Shown here in pieces: positions 42,665 through 47,880 of a stretch of DNA of 56,583 nt. Both the position numbers and the translations under genes were made by a program. This DNA comes from a virus (Duplodnaviria > Caudoviricetes). The notes beneath the pieces were generated by a model. That model had not been told where the DNA came from and searched no databases. It was given only the letters and a program-made list of their open reading frames with translations. The first letter of the stretch is position 1. Each line of letters begins with the position of its first letter. The stretch covers positions 1 through 56,583 of the IMG/VR virus record IMGVR_UViG_3300049182_000084. One strand, written 5' to 3'.

Positions 42665-42837
42665 AGCGAAACATCTTCCTCATGGCCGCCGCGGCGCTGC
42701 TCGCCGGCTGCGCCGACTTCCGCCTCGGTGCGGTCTGCTACCTCCCGGCCAACCACGCCGGGAACTGCCAAGTCATCCCGCCGACCACCATCAAGGTGGA
42801 GCCACCAGCGCCAGCGGCGTCCGGGGCCTCGGTGTGA
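42661..42837 (+). CDS. Small Pro-rich lipoprotein (o-spanin candidate)
   Basis: Own translation MKRNIFLMAAAALLAGCADFRLGAVCYLPANHAGNCQVIPPTTIKVEPPAPAASGASV; lipobox LAGC. Confidence 0.7.
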   Translation: MKRNIFLMAAAALLAGCADFRLGAVCYLPANHAGNCQVIPPTTIKVEPPAPAASGASV

Positions 42838-43292
42838 TTCTCGACGAGCCAGTCACCCGCAACTTCGCGCTGTCGGAGTTTGTCGTCAGCCACACGGCGG
42901 CGCGCCTGGGCATCGACAACAGCCCACCGGCAAAGGTGCTGGCGACCCTGCGCCACGTGCTGATCCCAGCCATGCAGGATGTGCGCGACCTGCTCGGCAT
43001 GCCGGTCGTCATCAAGAGCGGCTACCGCTCGCCGCAGTTGAACGCCGCGGTGCGCGGCGCCCAAGGCAGTGATCACGTCACCGGGCACGCCGCAGACTTC
43101 GTGGCGCCCGGCTACGGCACGCCGCGCGAAGTGTGTGCAGTGCTGCTTGGGCACGCCGGGATCCTGAAATGGGACCAGCTCATTTGGGAGGGTGGCTGGG
43201 TGCACATCAGCTTCTCGCCGCGCCGGCGCAACGAGGTGCTGACGGCGCACTTCACACCGAGCGGAGTGACGTACACGCAGGGGTTGGCGTGA
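42834..43292 (+). CDS. Endolysin, peptidase M15A family
   Basis: NFALSEF, SGYRSPQLN, SDHVTGHAADF, WVHISF. Confidence 0.9.
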   Translation: MILDEPVTRNFALSEFVVSHTAARLGIDNSPPAKVLATLRHVLIPAMQDVRDLLGMPVVIKSGYRSPQLNAAVRGAQGSDHVTGHAADFVAPGYGTPREVCAVLLGHAGILKWDQLIWEGGWVHISFSPRRRNEVLTAHFTPSGVTYTQGLA

Positions 43293-43534
43293 TCACCGAC
43301 CGCCTCACCGCCGAAGAGCGAGCTGCAGTCGCCATCGCACTGGACAAGACCTTCGCGCAGACCGATGAGGAACGCCTCGTCGCCGAGGTTGCCATCTGGC
43401 GGGCCATGCACATCGACAGCAACAAGCTGCAGCTGCTCGCGCACGTCGGCGTGAAGGCGATCCACGATGAGCGCGCAAGGCAGCAGCGCCTCAGGGCCGT
43501 CCGGGCCAAGGCGACGCCGCAGCCAGGGGTGTAG
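43289..43534 (+). CDS. Hypothetical protein
   Basis: GTGA overlap with the endolysin stop. Confidence 0.55.
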   Translation: MITDRLTAEERAAVAIALDKTFAQTDEERLVAEVAIWRAMHIDSNKLQLLAHVGVKAIHDERARQQRLRAVRAKATPQPGV

Positions 43535-43542
43535 GCGCCGTG

Positions 43543-43713
43543 ATGGACGTCATCGCCGTGCTGCTGGTCGTCGTCGGCGTGGCGATCGGCTGGTGTCTGC
43601 GCGGCTGCCACGAAGACGAGAAGGCCGCGGCGAGGGCTGAAGCAGCGGCGCAGCGGGCCGTTCAGCAGCCGGTCAAGGGCAAGGTACCGGCCGCGCAGGT
43701 TCAGTCGCGCTGA
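43543..43713 (+). CDS. Small N-terminally anchored membrane protein (i-spanin-like topology)
   Basis: Own translation MDVIAVLLVVVGVAIGWCLRGCHEDEKAAARAEAAAQRAVQQP... Confidence 0.5.
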   Translation: MDVIAVLLVVVGVAIGWCLRGCHEDEKAAARAEAAAQRAVQQPVKGKVPAAQVQSR

Positions 43714-43904
43714 GGCCGCGTGTTGCTCGGCATTTCGTCGCCCGGCTCGGGAAGGTTGCGCACCTCCAGCGTCCGCAGGTCCGGCTCGGCGCCGGGGAAG
43801 CGCTCCGCGGCCTGTTCGCGCGTCATCCGGTAGGTCGTCAGCCGCAGCTTGCCGGGCCGGCGCTCGTCCGGCACCCACCACTTGAAGAATTCGGTCGGCT
43901 TCAC
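43701..43904 (-). CDS. Hypothetical protein (67 aa)
   Basis: MKPTEFFKWWVPDERRPGKLRLTTYRMTREQA...; GTGA overlap with the P63C gene stop. Confidence 0.6.
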   Translation of the reverse strand: MKPTEFFKWWVPDERRPGKLRLTTYRMTREQAAERFPGAEPDLRTLEVRNLPEPGDEMPSNTRPQRD

Positions 43905-44950
43905 CGCACGTCCGTCGGGGCGCTGAAGTCCAGCTGCCCTGTGCGGTTGTAGGGCGGGTGGATCCGGTCGACGTTCGCTTGAAACTCCGCCGGCGTCCTC
44001 GACAGCTTCAGGATCGCCACAATGGAGGCAAGGTGCTCGCGCAGCTTCGGGTGGCCGATCTCCTGGCTCAGCCACTGGTGAAGCCGTGAGCGACGCTCGT
44101 GCTTGGAGGCCAGCTTCTTCAGTTCGGGCAGCAGCTCTGGAGCCAGGCGGTTGTAGACCACATCGTTGGTGATGTTCCCAAGAAAGCCGGGCCGCCAAGA
44201 CTTGTTGCCCGGGGGCGGGTAGGGAAGGTTGTAGAGCCGGAAGAGCTCCTCGTAGTAGTCGTTCGGGAAGGTCTTCATGTACGGCTGGAGCTCCTTGGCG
44301 ACGAAGGCCTCCAGAATCTTGGCGAGCGCGTCTTTCTCGCGATCGCGCTGGTAGCCGGTTGCCTCGTCGATGAGCGCGATGATCCCCACCCGAGCGAACC
44401 CGCGAACCAGCACTTCCGCCTTCTGTGCGATGTGTTCCTGGAGGTGGGTCAGAAACCCGTTCGCTCGAGCGGCCAAGATCGCATCGCAGAGATCCGCCAG
44501 GATGGTGGCCTCGTAGCCGATCCATGCTGCGTTGGCGTTGGGGGCGCGAAAGCGTATCGGGCTCGCGAGTTGCGTGGCCAGCATCGCGCATCGCAGCGCG
44601 AAGTCATGGTCACCGGCAGTGCCTGCCCGCTCGGCGAGGCCATTCATGAACAGCGCCAACCGTTGCTCGCCGGCCCGGATTGCGCCGCTGGCCGACATGC
44701 CGATGCCCGTCTGCAGGCCTGCGCGCGTCAGCACACGGCGGCCGTCCTCAAGCACGTAGCAGGGGATCGCGACATCACCGATCTTCAGCGGGTGGTCTTC
44801 CGAACCGTGCGTTGCCTTTGGCAGGGCTGCGATCTCCTTCTTCGCTGCCGCCGCTTTCTTGGCGATCTCCCGGCGTTGCTCCGCGGTCAGTTTCAGGGCT
44901 CGAGCGGCGCCGCCACGGGCGCGTCCAACGACTTTGGTGGGTTCCGGCAC
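43901..44950 (-). CDS. P63C-domain protein (antirepressor-like)
   Basis: GRARGGAARALKLTAEQRREIAKKAA, IPCYVLEDGRRVL, GIIALIDEATGYQ, KTFPNDYY, RLHQWLS; start uncertain. Confidence 0.85.
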   Translation of the reverse strand: MPEPTKVVGRARGGAARALKLTAEQRREIAKKAAAAKKEIAALPKATHGSEDHPLKIGDVAIPCYVLEDGRRVLTRAGLQTGIGMSASGAIRAGEQRLALFMNGLAERAGTAGDHDFALRCAMLATQLASPIRFRAPNANAAWIGYEATILADLCDAILAARANGFLTHLQEHIAQKAEVLVRGFARVGIIALIDEATGYQRDREKDALAKILEAFVAKELQPYMKTFPNDYYEELFRLYNLPYPPPGNKSWRPGFLGNITNDVVYNRLAPELLPELKKLASKHERRSRLHQWLSQEIGHPKLREHLASIVAILKLSRTPAEFQANVDRIHPPYNRTGQLDFSAPTDVR

Positions 44951-45066
44951 GATGCTGGTGCGGTAGTTGAGGAACCGCAAATATACATGCATCGAACCGC
45001 GATGCAAGAAGAACCACGCATTCTGCTTGCATTTTCCGCTTGATTTCGGGGTGCTGCTGGCTACCG

Positions 45067-45282
45067 TCAGAGCGCCCGCTCGGTGTCAACCGTGCCGTCC
45101 GGTCGCAGGAGCTTCGCCCGGTCACCGGCGCGCGTGCGCGTGAGGCGATACCAGCGATCCCGGGCGAGCGCCTCGGACGCGAATGGCGGGACGATGTCGT
45201 GCCCGTCCGGGCCGACGATGCGCCACTTGCCGGGCGCAGCGGGTGGCTCGGGCTTCGTGGCCTTGGGCTTGGCGGGACTCAC
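45067..45282 (-). CDS. Hypothetical protein (71 aa)
   Basis: GTG start after GGAG; fills the gap. Confidence 0.5.
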   Translation of the reverse strand: MSPAKPKATKPEPPAAPGKWRIVGPDGHDIVPPFASEALARDRWYRLTRTRAGDRAKLLRPDGTVDTERAL

Positions 45283-45312
45283 TGCAGCGCATCTCCCGTG
45301 TCCATGCCCACA

Positions 45313-46161
45313 TTATCGACAAGCGGCGAGCCTCAGCCTCTCCACTGCCTGCTGAAGCGCGTGCGCCGTGACGTCGCGCGCGATGAGCCCGTGCAGGTTG
45401 GCGTCCGGGTGTATACCGTCCGGTAGGTACACCGTCCAGCCAGGCAGGCCGAGCACGTAGGCCTGCACGTCCGCCAGCTGCGCGCCAGTCTCGGCCGCAA
45501 CCTCGCGCATTGCTGCGGCACGCGGGGCGCTGTCGTAGACCGCGGCCGTGGTCGGGCTCGGCGTCTGGAGGATCACGGCGGCCGGCGCGCTGGCCAGCGT
45601 GCGCAGGTTCGCCCGGTAGCGCTCGATCGTCACGCCCAGGGGCGCGTAGGCGTCATTGATGCCGTGGTTCACCAGCACCACGTCGGCTACCACTGAGCCG
45701 GGCCATGGAGCGTTCAGTCCGTCCGTGCCGGTGACGAGCTGCTCGGAGGTGGTGCCGCCTACCGCGCGGTTGTCGACCAGCACCGCGCCGGCGCCGAAGC
45801 GGCGATCGAGCTCGGCCTGCAGGTAGGGTGCGTGCGCGCGGTTGACGCTGTCGCCGAAGACTTGGACGCGGACTACGCGCGGGGTGCAGGTTGGGGGCTG
45901 GACCTGGGTGTCGCCGCCGCCTCCGCAGGCCGCCAAAGCCGTGGGGAAGAAAATGGCCAACAAGGCGCGTTTGACGCACTTTCCGCGTTCAGCGCGTGGT
46001 TTCTCCGCCCTCTGTGCACACTGTGCGCCGTGTGCACCGCCCCGATTGCAAATCCGTGTAGGTCGGTTCGACTCCGGCCCGCGCCTCCACCTCTCAAACG
46101 CCCCCTCTGCGGGGCGTTTTTCTTGGGGGGCCAATGGGGAAGTTTTTGGCAAAGTGCTCAT
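45313..46161 (-). CDS. SGNH/GDSL hydrolase lipoprotein; reading frame spans attP
   Basis: FGDS, NRAVGG, NHGIND, DGIHP blocks; lipobox LAAC near 45930. The only in-frame ATG upstream of the lipobox is 46161, overlapping the int stop. Confidence 0.8.
   Translation of the reverse strand: MSTLPKTSPLAPQEKRPAEGAFERWRRGPESNRPTRICNRGGAHGAQCAQRAEKPRAERGKCVKRALLAIFFPTALAACGGGGDTQVQPPTCTPRVVRVQVFGDSVNRAHAPYLQAELDRRFGAGAVLVDNRAVGGTTSEQLVTGTDGLNAPWPGSVVADVVLVNHGINDAYAPLGVTIERYRANLRTLASAPAAVILQTPSPTTAAVYDSAPRAAAMREVAAETGAQLADVQAYVLGLPGWTVYLPDGIHPDANLHGLIARDVTAHALQQAVERLRLAACR
45942..46153. other. attP: tRNA-Cys 3' core with flanking arm-type repeats
   Basis: Core GATTGCAAATCCGTGTAGGTCGGTTCGACTCCGGCCCGCGCCTCCA (46044-46089). 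Direct repeats TGGGGAAG-N4-TGGC(C/A)AA at 45942 and 46135. TGTGC three times at a 9-bp period (46013-46035). Confidence 0.88.
46096..46121 (+). terminator. Terminator for the reconstituted tRNA
   Basis: AAACGCCCC-N6-GGGGCGTTT-TT. Confidence 0.8.
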
Positions 46162-47114
46162 GCTTTCCTCGCTCCGATTGAGTTGATGGCCGCCTCCAGC
46201 GCGTCGTCATGCAGGTGGGCGTAGCGGCCCGTGCTGGCGGGGCTGCGGTGCCGCAGTACCTTGCCCACCACTGCCAGGCTGTGACCTTGGCTCAGCAGGT
46301 CCGAGGCCGTCGAGTGACGCAAGTCGTGGAAGTGCAGATGCTCCATCCCGGCACGCGCTCGAGCGGCGCGGAAGTGGTAGCCAACGATGAAGCGGGTCGG
46401 CCACTCGTAGTCCACGAGGCAGCGGATCTTGCGGTGCACCGGCATACGCACCGGGTCGCCGTTCTTCGAGTCCGGCAGCACGAAGCGGCCATCCTCCACT
46501 GTGGCGGCCAGAATCTCCCCCAGCCGCATGCCGCTGTAGAACGCGATGCGGATCAGCGCGCGGGTCTCCCAGTGGTCGCAGGCGCGCGCGAGCGCCAGCA
46601 TCTCGCCGCGGGTCACGTACACCTGCCGCTCGTTGCTCACCTCCGGAACGACGACGCGGGCCCCGGGGTCGTGCTCGGTCATCTTGTGGCGCTTCCAGGC
46701 GTAGCGGCACGCGGCGCGCAGGTAGGAGATGCGGTTCTTGATCGTGGCCGGCGCCAGCGCGCCGTCCTGGTCCTCGAAGTACTCGGCGCAGATGTCGGGG
46801 AGTTCGTCGATAGCCCGCCCGGTGTACCAGTCGAGCATGCCGTCGAGCTCCTGCTTGATGTTCGCGCCCGACTTGAGGTTGGGGACGCGCTCCTTCAGGT
46901 AACGAGCGACAGCTTCGTCAACGGTGCGCCGAGGCTTGGCGATTCCCGTCGCGAGCGCGTACAGGGCCGCGCCTTCCTTGCGGTCGAAGGCGTCGGCTTC
47001 GGTGCGGGTCCACCCGGCCGGGAGAAGCTGGCGCCTCCGAATGCGTTGCCCGTTGATGCGGCGATCGAAGTCGAAGCACCAGCAACCGGTGCGCTTGTCG
47101 CGGTAGATCGACAT
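46158..47114 (-). CDS. int: Tyrosine integrase
   Basis: SGMRLGE, SKNG, HDLRH, LRH, RYAH. Confidence 0.95.
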   Translation of the reverse strand: MSIYRDKRTGCWCFDFDRRINGQRIRRRQLLPAGWTRTEADAFDRKEGAALYALATGIAKPRRTVDEAVARYLKERVPNLKSGANIKQELDGMLDWYTGRAIDELPDICAEYFEDQDGALAPATIKNRISYLRAACRYAWKRHKMTEHDPGARVVVPEVSNERQVYVTRGEMLALARACDHWETRALIRIAFYSGMRLGEILAATVEDGRFVLPDSKNGDPVRMPVHRKIRCLVDYEWPTRFIVGYHFRAARARAGMEHLHFHDLRHSTASDLLSQGHSLAVVGKVLRHRSPASTGRYAHLHDDALEAAINSIGARKA

Positions 47115-47260
47115 GATGCGAGGTAGGTCTCCACGTCCTCGGGTTTGAAGCGCACGGCGCGGCCATGCCGGAAGCAGGCGAGCCGGCCCGCGGCGGCAAG
47201 ATCGTACACGGCCCGTTTGGACAGCCCGAGCTGGGCGGCGACGGCGGCAGCGGTGAGCAT
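46895..47260 (-). CDS. xis: Excisionase (HTH_17/MerR-like) overlapping the int 5' end
   Basis: MLTAAAVAAQLGLSKRAVYDLAAAGRLACFRHGRAVRFKPEDVETYL. Confidence 0.8.
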   Translation of the reverse strand: MLTAAAVAAQLGLSKRAVYDLAAAGRLACFRHGRAVRFKPEDVETYLASCRSTATSAPVAGASTSIAASTGNAFGGASFSRPGGPAPKPTPSTARKARPCTRSRRESPSLGAPLTKLSLVT

Positions 47261-47880
47261 CACTCGACCTCGAACCGGTTGCGCTTCCGGCTGTTCTCGC
47301 TGCCGGTGAGGACCTGCAGGTTCTCGGCGACGTGCAGGCCGCTCACCAGCTCGCCCTGCAGCGGGTAGCGGTGGTCGACGTGGTGCTCGATGCCGGTCGA
47401 GACAGTCAGCTCACGAGCGCGCGCATAGATCGCCTGGATGGCTTCCATGTTCGCCCAGGGCGGCGTGCGCCGCAGCCGCGCAGCGCGGCGCTTCGCTGCG
47501 TGGTGGCGCACGATGGCGGCATGTTCTTCAGCGCGCCGGCGGGCGATCTCGCGCCGCTCGGCGGCGTTGGGCTTGCGCGGCTTCGGAAGAGGCTCTGCGT
47601 TGGCGCGCCATTCGGCTTGGCGGCGTCCGAGCGGCGTTTCCTCCCAAGGAATCGCAGCCGGCGGAGTGACGGCCTGGGCCTGCTTGGTGGGGGTCGGGGC
47701 AGCAGGTTGGCGCGCCGCTTCGACCGCTTCGAAGTGCGCCCGGTAGAGCACCACCGGGCCACCGCGCGGGCGGCATGCCCGCGTGAAACCCTGCTTGTGC
47801 AACTCGCGCAACTGGGCGGCAGGCTGCGTGAGGCCGTTGGTGAGCTCCTGCAGCTCGGCGTCGGACAGTGTCAGGGACAC
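47260..47880 (-). CDS. DUF4224-like domain fused to HNH endonuclease
   Basis: N-terminal LSDAELQELTNGLTQPAAQLRELHKQGF...GPVVLYR; C-terminal RRTPPWA...HHVDHRYPLQGELVSGLHVAENLQVLTGSENSRK. Confidence 0.75.
   Translation of the reverse strand: MSLTLSDAELQELTNGLTQPAAQLRELHKQGFTRACRPRGGPVVLYRAHFEAVEAARQPAAPTPTKQAQAVTPPAAIPWEETPLGRRQAEWRANAEPLPKPRKPNAAERREIARRRAEEHAAIVRHHAAKRRAARLRRTPPWANMEAIQAIYARARELTVSTGIEHHVDHRYPLQGELVSGLHVAENLQVLTGSENSRKRNRFEVE

Follow-up and report, generated by a model that had tools for sequence, protein, structure and literature searches.

In phage lambda, the attachment site attP splits the pL operon, and sib retroregulation of the integrase gene int operates through RNA processing and transcriptional read-through. 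The attP of the myxophage Mx8 lies inside the 3′ end of its integrase gene, intP, and expression of the Tn916 transfer genes and from Pcirc of ICEclc depends on a junction formed in the excised circle. The conversion genes gtr and oac of P22-like and Shigella phages function in lysogens, each with a promoter and a start of its own. In the mycobacteriophage BPs, integration cuts the repressor gene at its 3′ end, and the two resulting forms of the protein are not equally stable. As two reports describe it, the attP core of BPs-type mycobacteriophages lies within an open reading frame (ORF) beside int, and the products of the free and integrated forms differ (PMC4557955, PMC3694055). In this study, we analyzed the ORF at positions 45313–46161, minus strand, of the virus record IMGVR_UViG_3300049182_000084 (56,583 bases; this whole stretch of DNA is hereafter called the window). 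The ORF encodes an SGNH esterase lipoprotein, and its 5′ leader passes through attP. We put at about 50% the probability that int-coupled translation crosses attP, that the leader is cleaved at the lipobox, and that integration disconnects the gene.

According to the ORF list and Pfam, the 282-residue product consists of a 62-residue leader, a lipoprotein signal peptide, and an SGNH esterase domain. The ATG of the ORF (46161–46159) shares the letters TG with the int stop codon TGA (46160–46158), forming an ATGA overlap at 46161–46158. From this ATG to the codon of Cys79 (45927–45925), the frame runs through 78 codons without a stop, crossing a hairpin at 46096–46125 and then the antisense 3′ part of a cysteine transfer RNA (tRNA-Cys), and the other two frames of the leader contain one and two stops. 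An initial annotation of the window had reported this overlap and the stop-free frame over the terminator and the tRNA-Cys core, and both hold at the same coordinates. A Shine-Dalgarno (SD)-like sequence, GGAGCGAGGAA, lies within the 3′ end of int (46165–46175, minus strand), 4–5 nucleotides before the ATG. Its duplex with the anti-SD sequence, at −8.3 kcal/mol, is the strongest among 22 candidate starts; the corresponding values are −6.4 kcal/mol for int and −7.4 kcal/mol for orf71, the small gene downstream. The window therefore has the arrangement by which translational coupling is recognized, namely a stop/start overlap with the SD placed in the upstream gene.

Downstream of the core, the only in-frame ATG, GTG, or TTG codons are the TTGs at codons 67, 68, and 76, which fall within the hydrophobic region. 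The TTG-TTG pair (Leu67 and Leu68; 45958–45963, minus strand) is located at or inside the edge of a repeat of the P arm, and anti-SD pairing amounts to −0.4 kcal/mol at 45963 and +0.7 kcal/mol at 45960. This agrees with the earlier statement that TTGs are the sole start-like codons between core and lipobox and have no well-placed SD. The SGNH gene of the window is without a usable initiation site of its own near the signal peptide. Variants that are 95–98% identical, present in runs X3 and X4, cover 45698–46073 and 45873–46023 and contain no indels. An exact-pattern search of viral contigs for near relatives of the start region gave no matches, and a short-protein search with the leader returned just one protein, P0074, which is another ORF through antisense tRNA-Cys.

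The product reads VKRALLAIFFPTALAAC, followed by a PF13472 domain at residues 103–257 (E 5e-15). Lipoboxes have the motif [LVI][ASTVI][GAS]C after a hydrophobic stretch; the signal peptide of the window protein (VKRALLAIFFPTALAA followed by Cys; 45925–45975, minus strand) presents ALLAIFFPTA-LAAC, with Cys79 preceding GGG, and C79-G80-G81-G82 are conserved at 90% or more in an alignment with 21 homologues. The SGNH/GDSL hydrolase domain (45391–45855, minus strand) scores 56.8 bits for PF13472 (cut-off 32.9) and 25.7 bits for PF00657 (cut-off 23.6), and its G+C fraction at third codon positions (GC3) is 0.863. SGNH enzymes are recognized by a GDS block with the Ser nucleophile, an Asn in block III, and a DxxH motif. 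The catalytic blocks are intact in the window protein: G103-D104-S105, N165 (NHGIND), and D248/H251 (DGIHP) do not vary among the 22 aligned sequences. Of the 15 invariant columns of the family alignment, the window protein lacks none, and its gene has no frameshifts. Thus, the lipobox and the full SGNH domain read in the initial annotation are both present. Counted from the TTG starts, the n-region of the signal peptide has no Lys or Arg, whereas from ATG 46161 it comprises at least 62 residues with a net charge of +10 (16 Lys and Arg, 6 Asp and Glu), compatible with an N-in orientation.

With the family profile, matches are obtained to generic SGNH esterases, to acetyl-xylan esterases, and to SGNH domains of phage tail fibres, among them the solved tail-fibre proteins 9d80 (E 1.7e-6) and 9lna, and the window protein itself matches phrog_15641, a tail fibre. 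The most likely activity is that of a periplasmic or outer-membrane carbohydrate O-acetyl esterase acting on an envelope polysaccharide. We dropped the idea of peptidoglycan de-O-acetylation aiding lysis, since the neighboring lysis enzyme (42834–43292) is presumably peptidase-like rather than a muramidase, judging from the resemblance of its sequence.

The attP core (46044–46089, plus strand) consists of the 3′ 46 nucleotides of tRNA-Cys(GCA), from the anticodon stem to CCA. In contigs from four of four soil or rhizosphere metagenome runs, identity with host tRNA-Cys is bounded at exactly these positions: the loose contig ends before 46044 are the 5′ half of tRNA-Cys, and the sequence beyond 46089 is varied. 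In the metagenome runs, depth rises from about 30 to 113 in the bin of the core. With the tRNA-Cys gene of genome G004 the core shares 94% identity, and with att regions of Bordetella phages 91%. As neither ARAGORN nor Rfam detects a whole tRNA at this place, the core is a tRNA fragment, and it matches the 3′ part of a host tRNA beside int, as an attP does. Right after the tRNA 3′ end, an inverted repeat of 9 nucleotides with 100% complementarity (I5) forms a hairpin with a T-run (46096–46125, plus strand), which would terminate the tRNA-Cys gene rebuilt by integration; on the minus strand, only TTTG follows it. Homologous hairpins are present in L097 and L102, which belong to a set of five viral contigs (L098, L102, L097, L091, and L105) carrying a homologous int, 42–62% identical, beside the same antisense tRNA-Cys core.

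A 19-nucleotide direct repeat (D3; 74% identical, spacing 193) surrounds the core. Its P′ copy (46135–46153) covers codons 3–9 of the long ORF, and its P copy (45942–45960) lies inside the signal-peptide codons (L)AIFFP. Direct-repeat pairs, each of the locus' own sequence, flank the core in six of six comparison loci (the five tRNA-Cys contigs and L033) at spacings of 164–207. Such flanking pairs are the expected signature of arm-type Int sites, and we treat both copies as candidate sites. In L098, the P copy likewise overlaps signal-peptide codons (WAGIYPLI). Since the P repeat is placed within signal-peptide codons, the 5′ end of the SGNH gene is part of attP. The attP extends over at least 45942–46153 and includes the P′ repeat, the tRNA terminator, the 46-bp core, and the P repeat. 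Between the core and the P arm repeat, the coding strand also holds a palindrome, GTGCACAC-N8-GTGTGCAC (46006–46027), which may be a protein-binding site within attP.

The homologues of the window protein are short lipoproteins, most of which begin with M-(K/R) and continue with a hydrophobic stretch and LAAC-GGGG. We compared the DNA at 30 lipobox loci: 11 of the 14 viral loci examined (24 retrieved), 3 of 4 from genomes (6 retrieved), 14 of 21 from metagenomes (46 retrieved), the window, and L098; distant or truncated matches and obvious duplicates were omitted. An ATG or GTG lies 13–22 codons before the Cys in 24 of the 30. One of the 24 is L002, the closest relative with DNA (73% identical), where the ATG-AAA is 14 codons away from the Cys. 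The remaining six loci are the window, L033, L098, L041, L005, and L032, and tRNA-derived att sequence adjoins the first four. In L005, a clean SD-ATG, with stops upstream of it, lies 53 codons ahead of the Cys, and in L032 an SD-ATG lies 65 codons ahead of it; the n-regions of 35–50 residues behind these clean SD-ATGs imply that long leaders are tolerated in the family. A lipobox-like motif is found in 118 of 150 family representatives, and in 17 of these 118 (~14%) the called protein has over 40 residues ahead of the Cys. On visual inspection, several of the 17 long leaders read through tRNA T-arm sequence.

A separate long-leader group (L032, P0046, P0176, P0180, and P0194) has about 50–130 residues before the Cys and a similar N-terminal motif, ML(P/A)(M/V)QT(N/T)K, which in L032 is preceded by a good SD. 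The family as a whole is recurrently located beside tRNA att sites. Whole tRNA genes lie directly beside family members in three cases. In L041, a tRNA-Asn lies 130 nucleotides upstream on the same strand, and there are 7 codons from ATG to Cys; a tRNA-Ser lies about 530 nucleotides upstream in L027, and a tRNA-Arg lies downstream in L040. All three probably represent integrated prophages whose edge carries the esterase.

The arrangement of int, a tRNA fragment, and SGNH on one strand occurs at five loci, namely the window, L033, L098, L010, and L043. At three of the five (the window, L033, and L098), a canonical start is missing near the signal peptide, and in all three the frame is open to a start that overlaps the upstream stop (ATGA in the window, GTGA in L033, ATGA in L098). 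In its own mononucleotide shuffles, the window leader stays open in 9% of cases, and the same probability is 0.10 for L033 and 0.10 for L098; at p = 0.1, the binomial probability of finding at least three of five open is about 0.009. As an empirical check, 3 of 16 non-SGNH frames at six tRNA-Cys loci are open for 55 codons past the core start, which agrees in order of magnitude with the shuffle rates. The SGNH protein of L033 is 59% identical to that of the window, and its core is a tRNA-Leu in sense orientation. The L033 int is recognized by phrog_1 (E 6e-12) and shows no BLASTP relationship to the window int (E 2.1). The L033 SGNH frame has no stops, as compared with 4 and 3 in the other frames, and it offers no start over the 44 codons that lead from a GTG within the T-arm to the Cys. 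In L098, the SGNH protein is 37% and the int 62% identical to those of the window, and the same tRNA-Cys core is read in another frame. The genes of L098 form the chain int-GTGA-orf107-ATGA-long SGNH ORF, in which the SGNH frame has no stops, as compared with 4 and 1. After its core there is no ATG, GTG, or TTG, and CTG-AAG occupies the expected start position. Given the unrelated int and tRNA-Leu core of L033 and the different frame of L098, the three start-less loci are independent. Homologues with stops between int and the signal peptide, named in the initial annotation as evidence that would count against a severed gene, do exist. L010 and L043 have int genes of other families and stops after the tRNA fragment, but they also have their own SD-ATG and so have no bearing on the start-less loci.

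To see what integration does to the frame, whole tRNA-Cys contexts were collected from 11 loci scanned by script, 9 of which matched the pattern; these may be host DNA or phage arms. In eight of the nine, among them that of G004, the closest candidate for the host locus, the post-integration window frame meets a stop within 0–29 codons and has no in-frame start. In the frame used by L098, however, the codon that spans the CCA end has the sequence ATG, GTG, or TTG in seven of the nine, and both L033 and L098 have in-frame starts, within the core or at its border, that integration would leave in place. Thus, the claim that integration severs the gene from its start, which draws on the three open start-less loci among five, the strong SD, and the eight contexts, applies to the window only.

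On these grounds, we propose the following course of events. While attP is intact, during infection or after excision, the SGNH gene and orf71 would be the distal genes of the xis-int transcript. Ribosomes would initiate at ATG 46161, given its strong SD and 4-nucleotide overlap with the int stop, and would read a basic leader of 62 residues across attP and the hairpin, the leader sequence being otherwise irrelevant. The hydrophobic segment would then serve as an internal signal, and Lgt and LspA would process the protein and cleave it before Cys79, so that the mature outer-membrane-type lipoprotein esterase would be the same whatever the leader. As signal peptidase II removes all residues that precede the Cys, att sequences could be translated at no cost to the product. 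Integration at tRNA-Cys would swap all that lies beyond 46089 (24 codons, the ATG, the SD, int, and the int promoter) for host DNA. The prophage copy would be silent or nearly so and would be reconnected upon excision.

The best surviving alternative holds that this is an ordinary att-adjacent cargo gene, with weak initiation at TTG 45963 or 45960 whether the phage is free or integrated, giving a short uncharged signal peptide, M(L)AIFFPTALAA, before the Cys, the open frame being a by-product of GC-rich, stop-poor DNA. We regard it as unlikely. A number of observations favor it or weigh against int-coupled translation. The source collection calls the same DNA twice, as 215 residues from TTG 45960 (P0001, the IMG gene call) and as 282 residues from the ATG (P0053). 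The resulting signal peptide of 12–13 residues fits the range of a family in which signal peptides of just 13–14 residues occur (P0013 and P0015). Windows of 78 codons are open in 37–45% of cases genome-wide in any frame, so that the open leader alone is just mildly unusual and the weight must come from the locus comparison. The core is stop-free in every frame, and long open stretches lie by accident above canonical starts in L002, L028, L029, L036, L057, and L072; the one in L002 extends 386 codons upstream of the clean ATG. The GC3 of leader codons outside the core is 0.57 (26/46) versus 0.86 for the mature part (binomial p = 8e-7), which means that the leader was not shaped as coding sequence, although att functions constrain it. 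In addition, the int frame itself runs through the core in L097, L102, and L091, and in L105 (int 42% identical) a 63-codon ORF with an ATGA overlap crosses the core and ends 72 nucleotides later with no cargo. Both the ATGA and a frame open through the core therefore occur in this int family without SGNH. The locus comparison rests on three loci, and at two of them the overlapping starts are SD-weak (−0.6 in L033 and −3.0 in L098). Lipoprotein export behind a leader of 62 residues is assumed, and no RNA runs containing the window stretch are listed.

Initiation at the TTGs, however, has to do without an SD and without Lys or Arg in the n-region. These codons lie within or abut the repeat shared with the P′ arm, so that their presence is explained by Int binding at the candidate sites, and the in-frame VKR just upstream of them would be purposeless. 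In addition, L033 and L098 have no TTG, ATG, or GTG between core and Cys (in L033, from the T-arm GTG onward), and the TTG explanation therefore cannot be transferred to them.

Loss of the start is a second alternative, and an improbable one. A GTG would have become GTC (45975–45973), leaving a silent, recently disabled gene; the same would have happened independently in L033 and L098, with the 5′ ends at att arms being prone to damage by module exchange. The GTC codon (Val63; 45973–45975, minus strand) has GGAAAG 6 nucleotides upstream (anti-SD −3.5 kcal/mol) and stands where relatives start: GTC-AAA in the window aligns with ATG-AAA in L002 and with GTG-AAA in L026 and L029. This codon may, from the alignment, be a former GTG start. 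The equivalent place is CTG-AAG in L098 and CAT-AGA in L033, the 7 codons of L041 from ATG to Cys point in the same direction, and mosaic joints at the lipobox indicate frequent recombination there. On the other hand, the body of the window gene is intact, with its invariant columns kept, no frameshifts, and a GC3 of 0.86, and three diverged lineages (37–59% identical) retain intact bodies together with open leaders, which is unexpected for dead genes.

It is very improbable that the gene instead belongs to the lysogen, gaining a promoter, a start, and the host-derived N-terminus once suggested for it from host DNA downstream of tRNA-Cys: although P0052 begins MADYL just 5 codons before the same core, the codon at the CCA end would serve as a start in the L098 frame in most host-like contexts, and in the sense-oriented L033, L041, and L027 the gene would sit downstream of a whole tRNA gene, the window frame finds no start before a stop in eight of nine contexts, transcription would have to run antisense through a tRNA-Gly/tRNA-Cys cluster, and genome searches found no attR junction of this phage.

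Searches for lysogens gave few matches. In a sample of 401 genomes from the order around G004, only G004 itself yielded the SGNH protein, and there it does not lie at a tRNA. Of 401 genomes of the family, 5 contain the int protein, and in none of these 5 does SGNH lie beside a tRNA-Cys fragment. Genome G573 has an attP-like arrangement of int, HNH, and core without SGNH, and a second tRNA-Cys fragment in G004 (L083) lies among host-like genes.

Comparison of whole proteins reveals exchange of the mature domain between att modules. P0007, whose leader passes through a sense tRNA-Leu, and P0059, whose leader passes through an antisense tRNA, are identical at 190 of 190 residues after the linker, whereas their leaders are unrelated. 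Similarly, L098 and P0064 are 97% identical by BLASTP but differ in their signal peptides. These mosaic joints fall at or just after the lipobox CGGGG, implying that leader and signal peptide travel with the int/att module, and such identical or nearly identical mature domains on unrelated leaders and signal peptides indicate recent cassette exchange. The tRNA-Cys core of the window is also read, in the same frame, by the lipoprotein ORF P0052, which is not an SGNH protein. Scans of viral contigs with the P0007 and P0017 proteins returned only L006-like DNA, and the tRNA-Leu core of L033 was found in viral contigs at two loci, neither of which has SGNH. A wider proposal, which we offer tentatively and at less than even odds, is that the P arm of some Burkholderiales-phage int-attP modules provides a start-less socket, in which leader and signal peptide double as an Int arm site. 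Varied secreted cargo would be joined to it at the lipobox, made only while attP is intact, and turned off in the lysogen, which would make the cargo a secreted effector gated by integration.

The window is the whole virus record, linear, with a completeness rating of 100% and a GC content of 65–71%. As int and SGNH are contiguous across the tRNA fragment, it represents the non-integrated (attP) form of a complete temperate-phage genome. Depth in a possible source run of the contig is alike on either side of the tRNA fragment (31.5 vs 29). The minus-strand order is an excisionase-like helix-turn-helix (HTH) gene, the tyrosine integrase, the ORF at 45313–46161, a 71-codon gene, and a terminator-like hairpin. 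The excisionase-like gene (46895–47263, minus strand) matches PF12728 HTH_17 at residues 2–52 (E 1e-12) and the excisionase families phrog_66 and phrog_1840. Past its HTH, its frame runs for 73 more codons within int in another frame, and GC3 is 0.67 in this tail and 0.79 in the HTH part; the same xis-int overlap is seen in L102. The integrase gene (46158–47114, minus strand) matches PF00589 (E 6e-16) and phrog_1 (E 3e-44). The small gene orf71 (45067–45282, minus strand; GC3 0.861) begins 30 nucleotides downstream of SGNH and has no Pfam or PHROG match. A terminator-like hairpin with a T-rich tail, identified by hairpin scan (44988–45006, minus strand), closes the xis-int-attP-SGNH-orf71 unit.

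No sigma-70-like promoter was found in 43700–47400. A promoter guessed before the P63C gene was unsupported by the scan, which called a terminator-like hairpin there. ARAGORN called a tRNA-Trp(CCA) at 43730–43806 on the plus strand, and an Rfam scan of 43000–47500 with E up to 1 gave no tRNA; the call is probably a false positive or a degenerate copy. In relatives from runs X2 and X4 (47115–47181), 65 bases between xis and the int start are swapped for 80 others. One X3 contig links 47171 to 45915 via 7 letters and would skip int, attP, and the signal peptide; this join has a depth of 3.4 and is weakly supported.

Elsewhere in the int family, the int frames of L097, L102, and L091 (53–61% identical) end 5–10 codons past the core, which places attP inside the 3′ end of int, and integration would alter the Int C-terminus. 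The int stop context GCATGA with an overlapping ATG is common to the window, L105, and L108 (contig G573:C167). In L108, the overlapping ORF stops after 10 codons, and an HNH-like gene lies between int and core.

If int-coupled translation across attP is correct, control by site-specific recombination would reach beyond repressors and int to an envelope enzyme, by parting the ORF from its start codon, and a cleavable signal peptide would let a recombination site occupy a coding region while leaving the product unharmed. Cargo on the attP side could then be specific to lytic growth or to the stage before integration and should not automatically be taken for lysogenic conversion. For annotation, the consequence is that gene callers disagree on one and the same DNA, with 215 or 282 residues. 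Even if our reading is wrong, the locus still shows clearly how attP arm sites and the coding sequence of a cargo gene can overlap.

Comparing the locus with the known systems, the initial annotation had pointed to the BPs type. The part of this analogy that stands is the attP core within an open frame beside int, the translation of which is inferred in the window. However, in BPs the cut removes the 3′ end of a repressor, whereas here it would fall in the cleavable 5′ leader of a secreted cargo enzyme, and no regulator is involved. As the gene encodes an SGNH esterase rather than an immunity repressor and attP lies in its 5′ leader, the locus is of a similar kind only and is not a member of the BPs type. 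Since the leader is removed anyway, the switch would act on or off at initiation and leave the protein unchanged. As in lambda, sequences across attP are tied to int transcription only while attP is intact, but the link in the window is one reading frame across the core and probably translational coupling. The window shares with Mx8 a coding frame through the att core, and L097, L102, and L091 do exactly so for int; in Mx8 it is the integrase C-terminus that is concerned, and in the window it is a downstream cargo gene. Likewise, a gene joined to its expression signals in the excised form only, as we propose here, recalls Tn916 and ICEclc, whose junctions lie between promoter and gene, whereas that of the window lies between the start codon and the body of one phage ORF. 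The predicted polysaccharide-modifying enzyme beside int and attP resembles gtr and oac, except that no promoter or start of its own was found for the window gene. The full texts searched describe integration-dependent repressors but no cargo gene with a 5′ leader across attP. Compared with all of these, a cargo gene with a cleavable 5′ leader spanning attP would be a new form of attP-in-gene and split-operon control.

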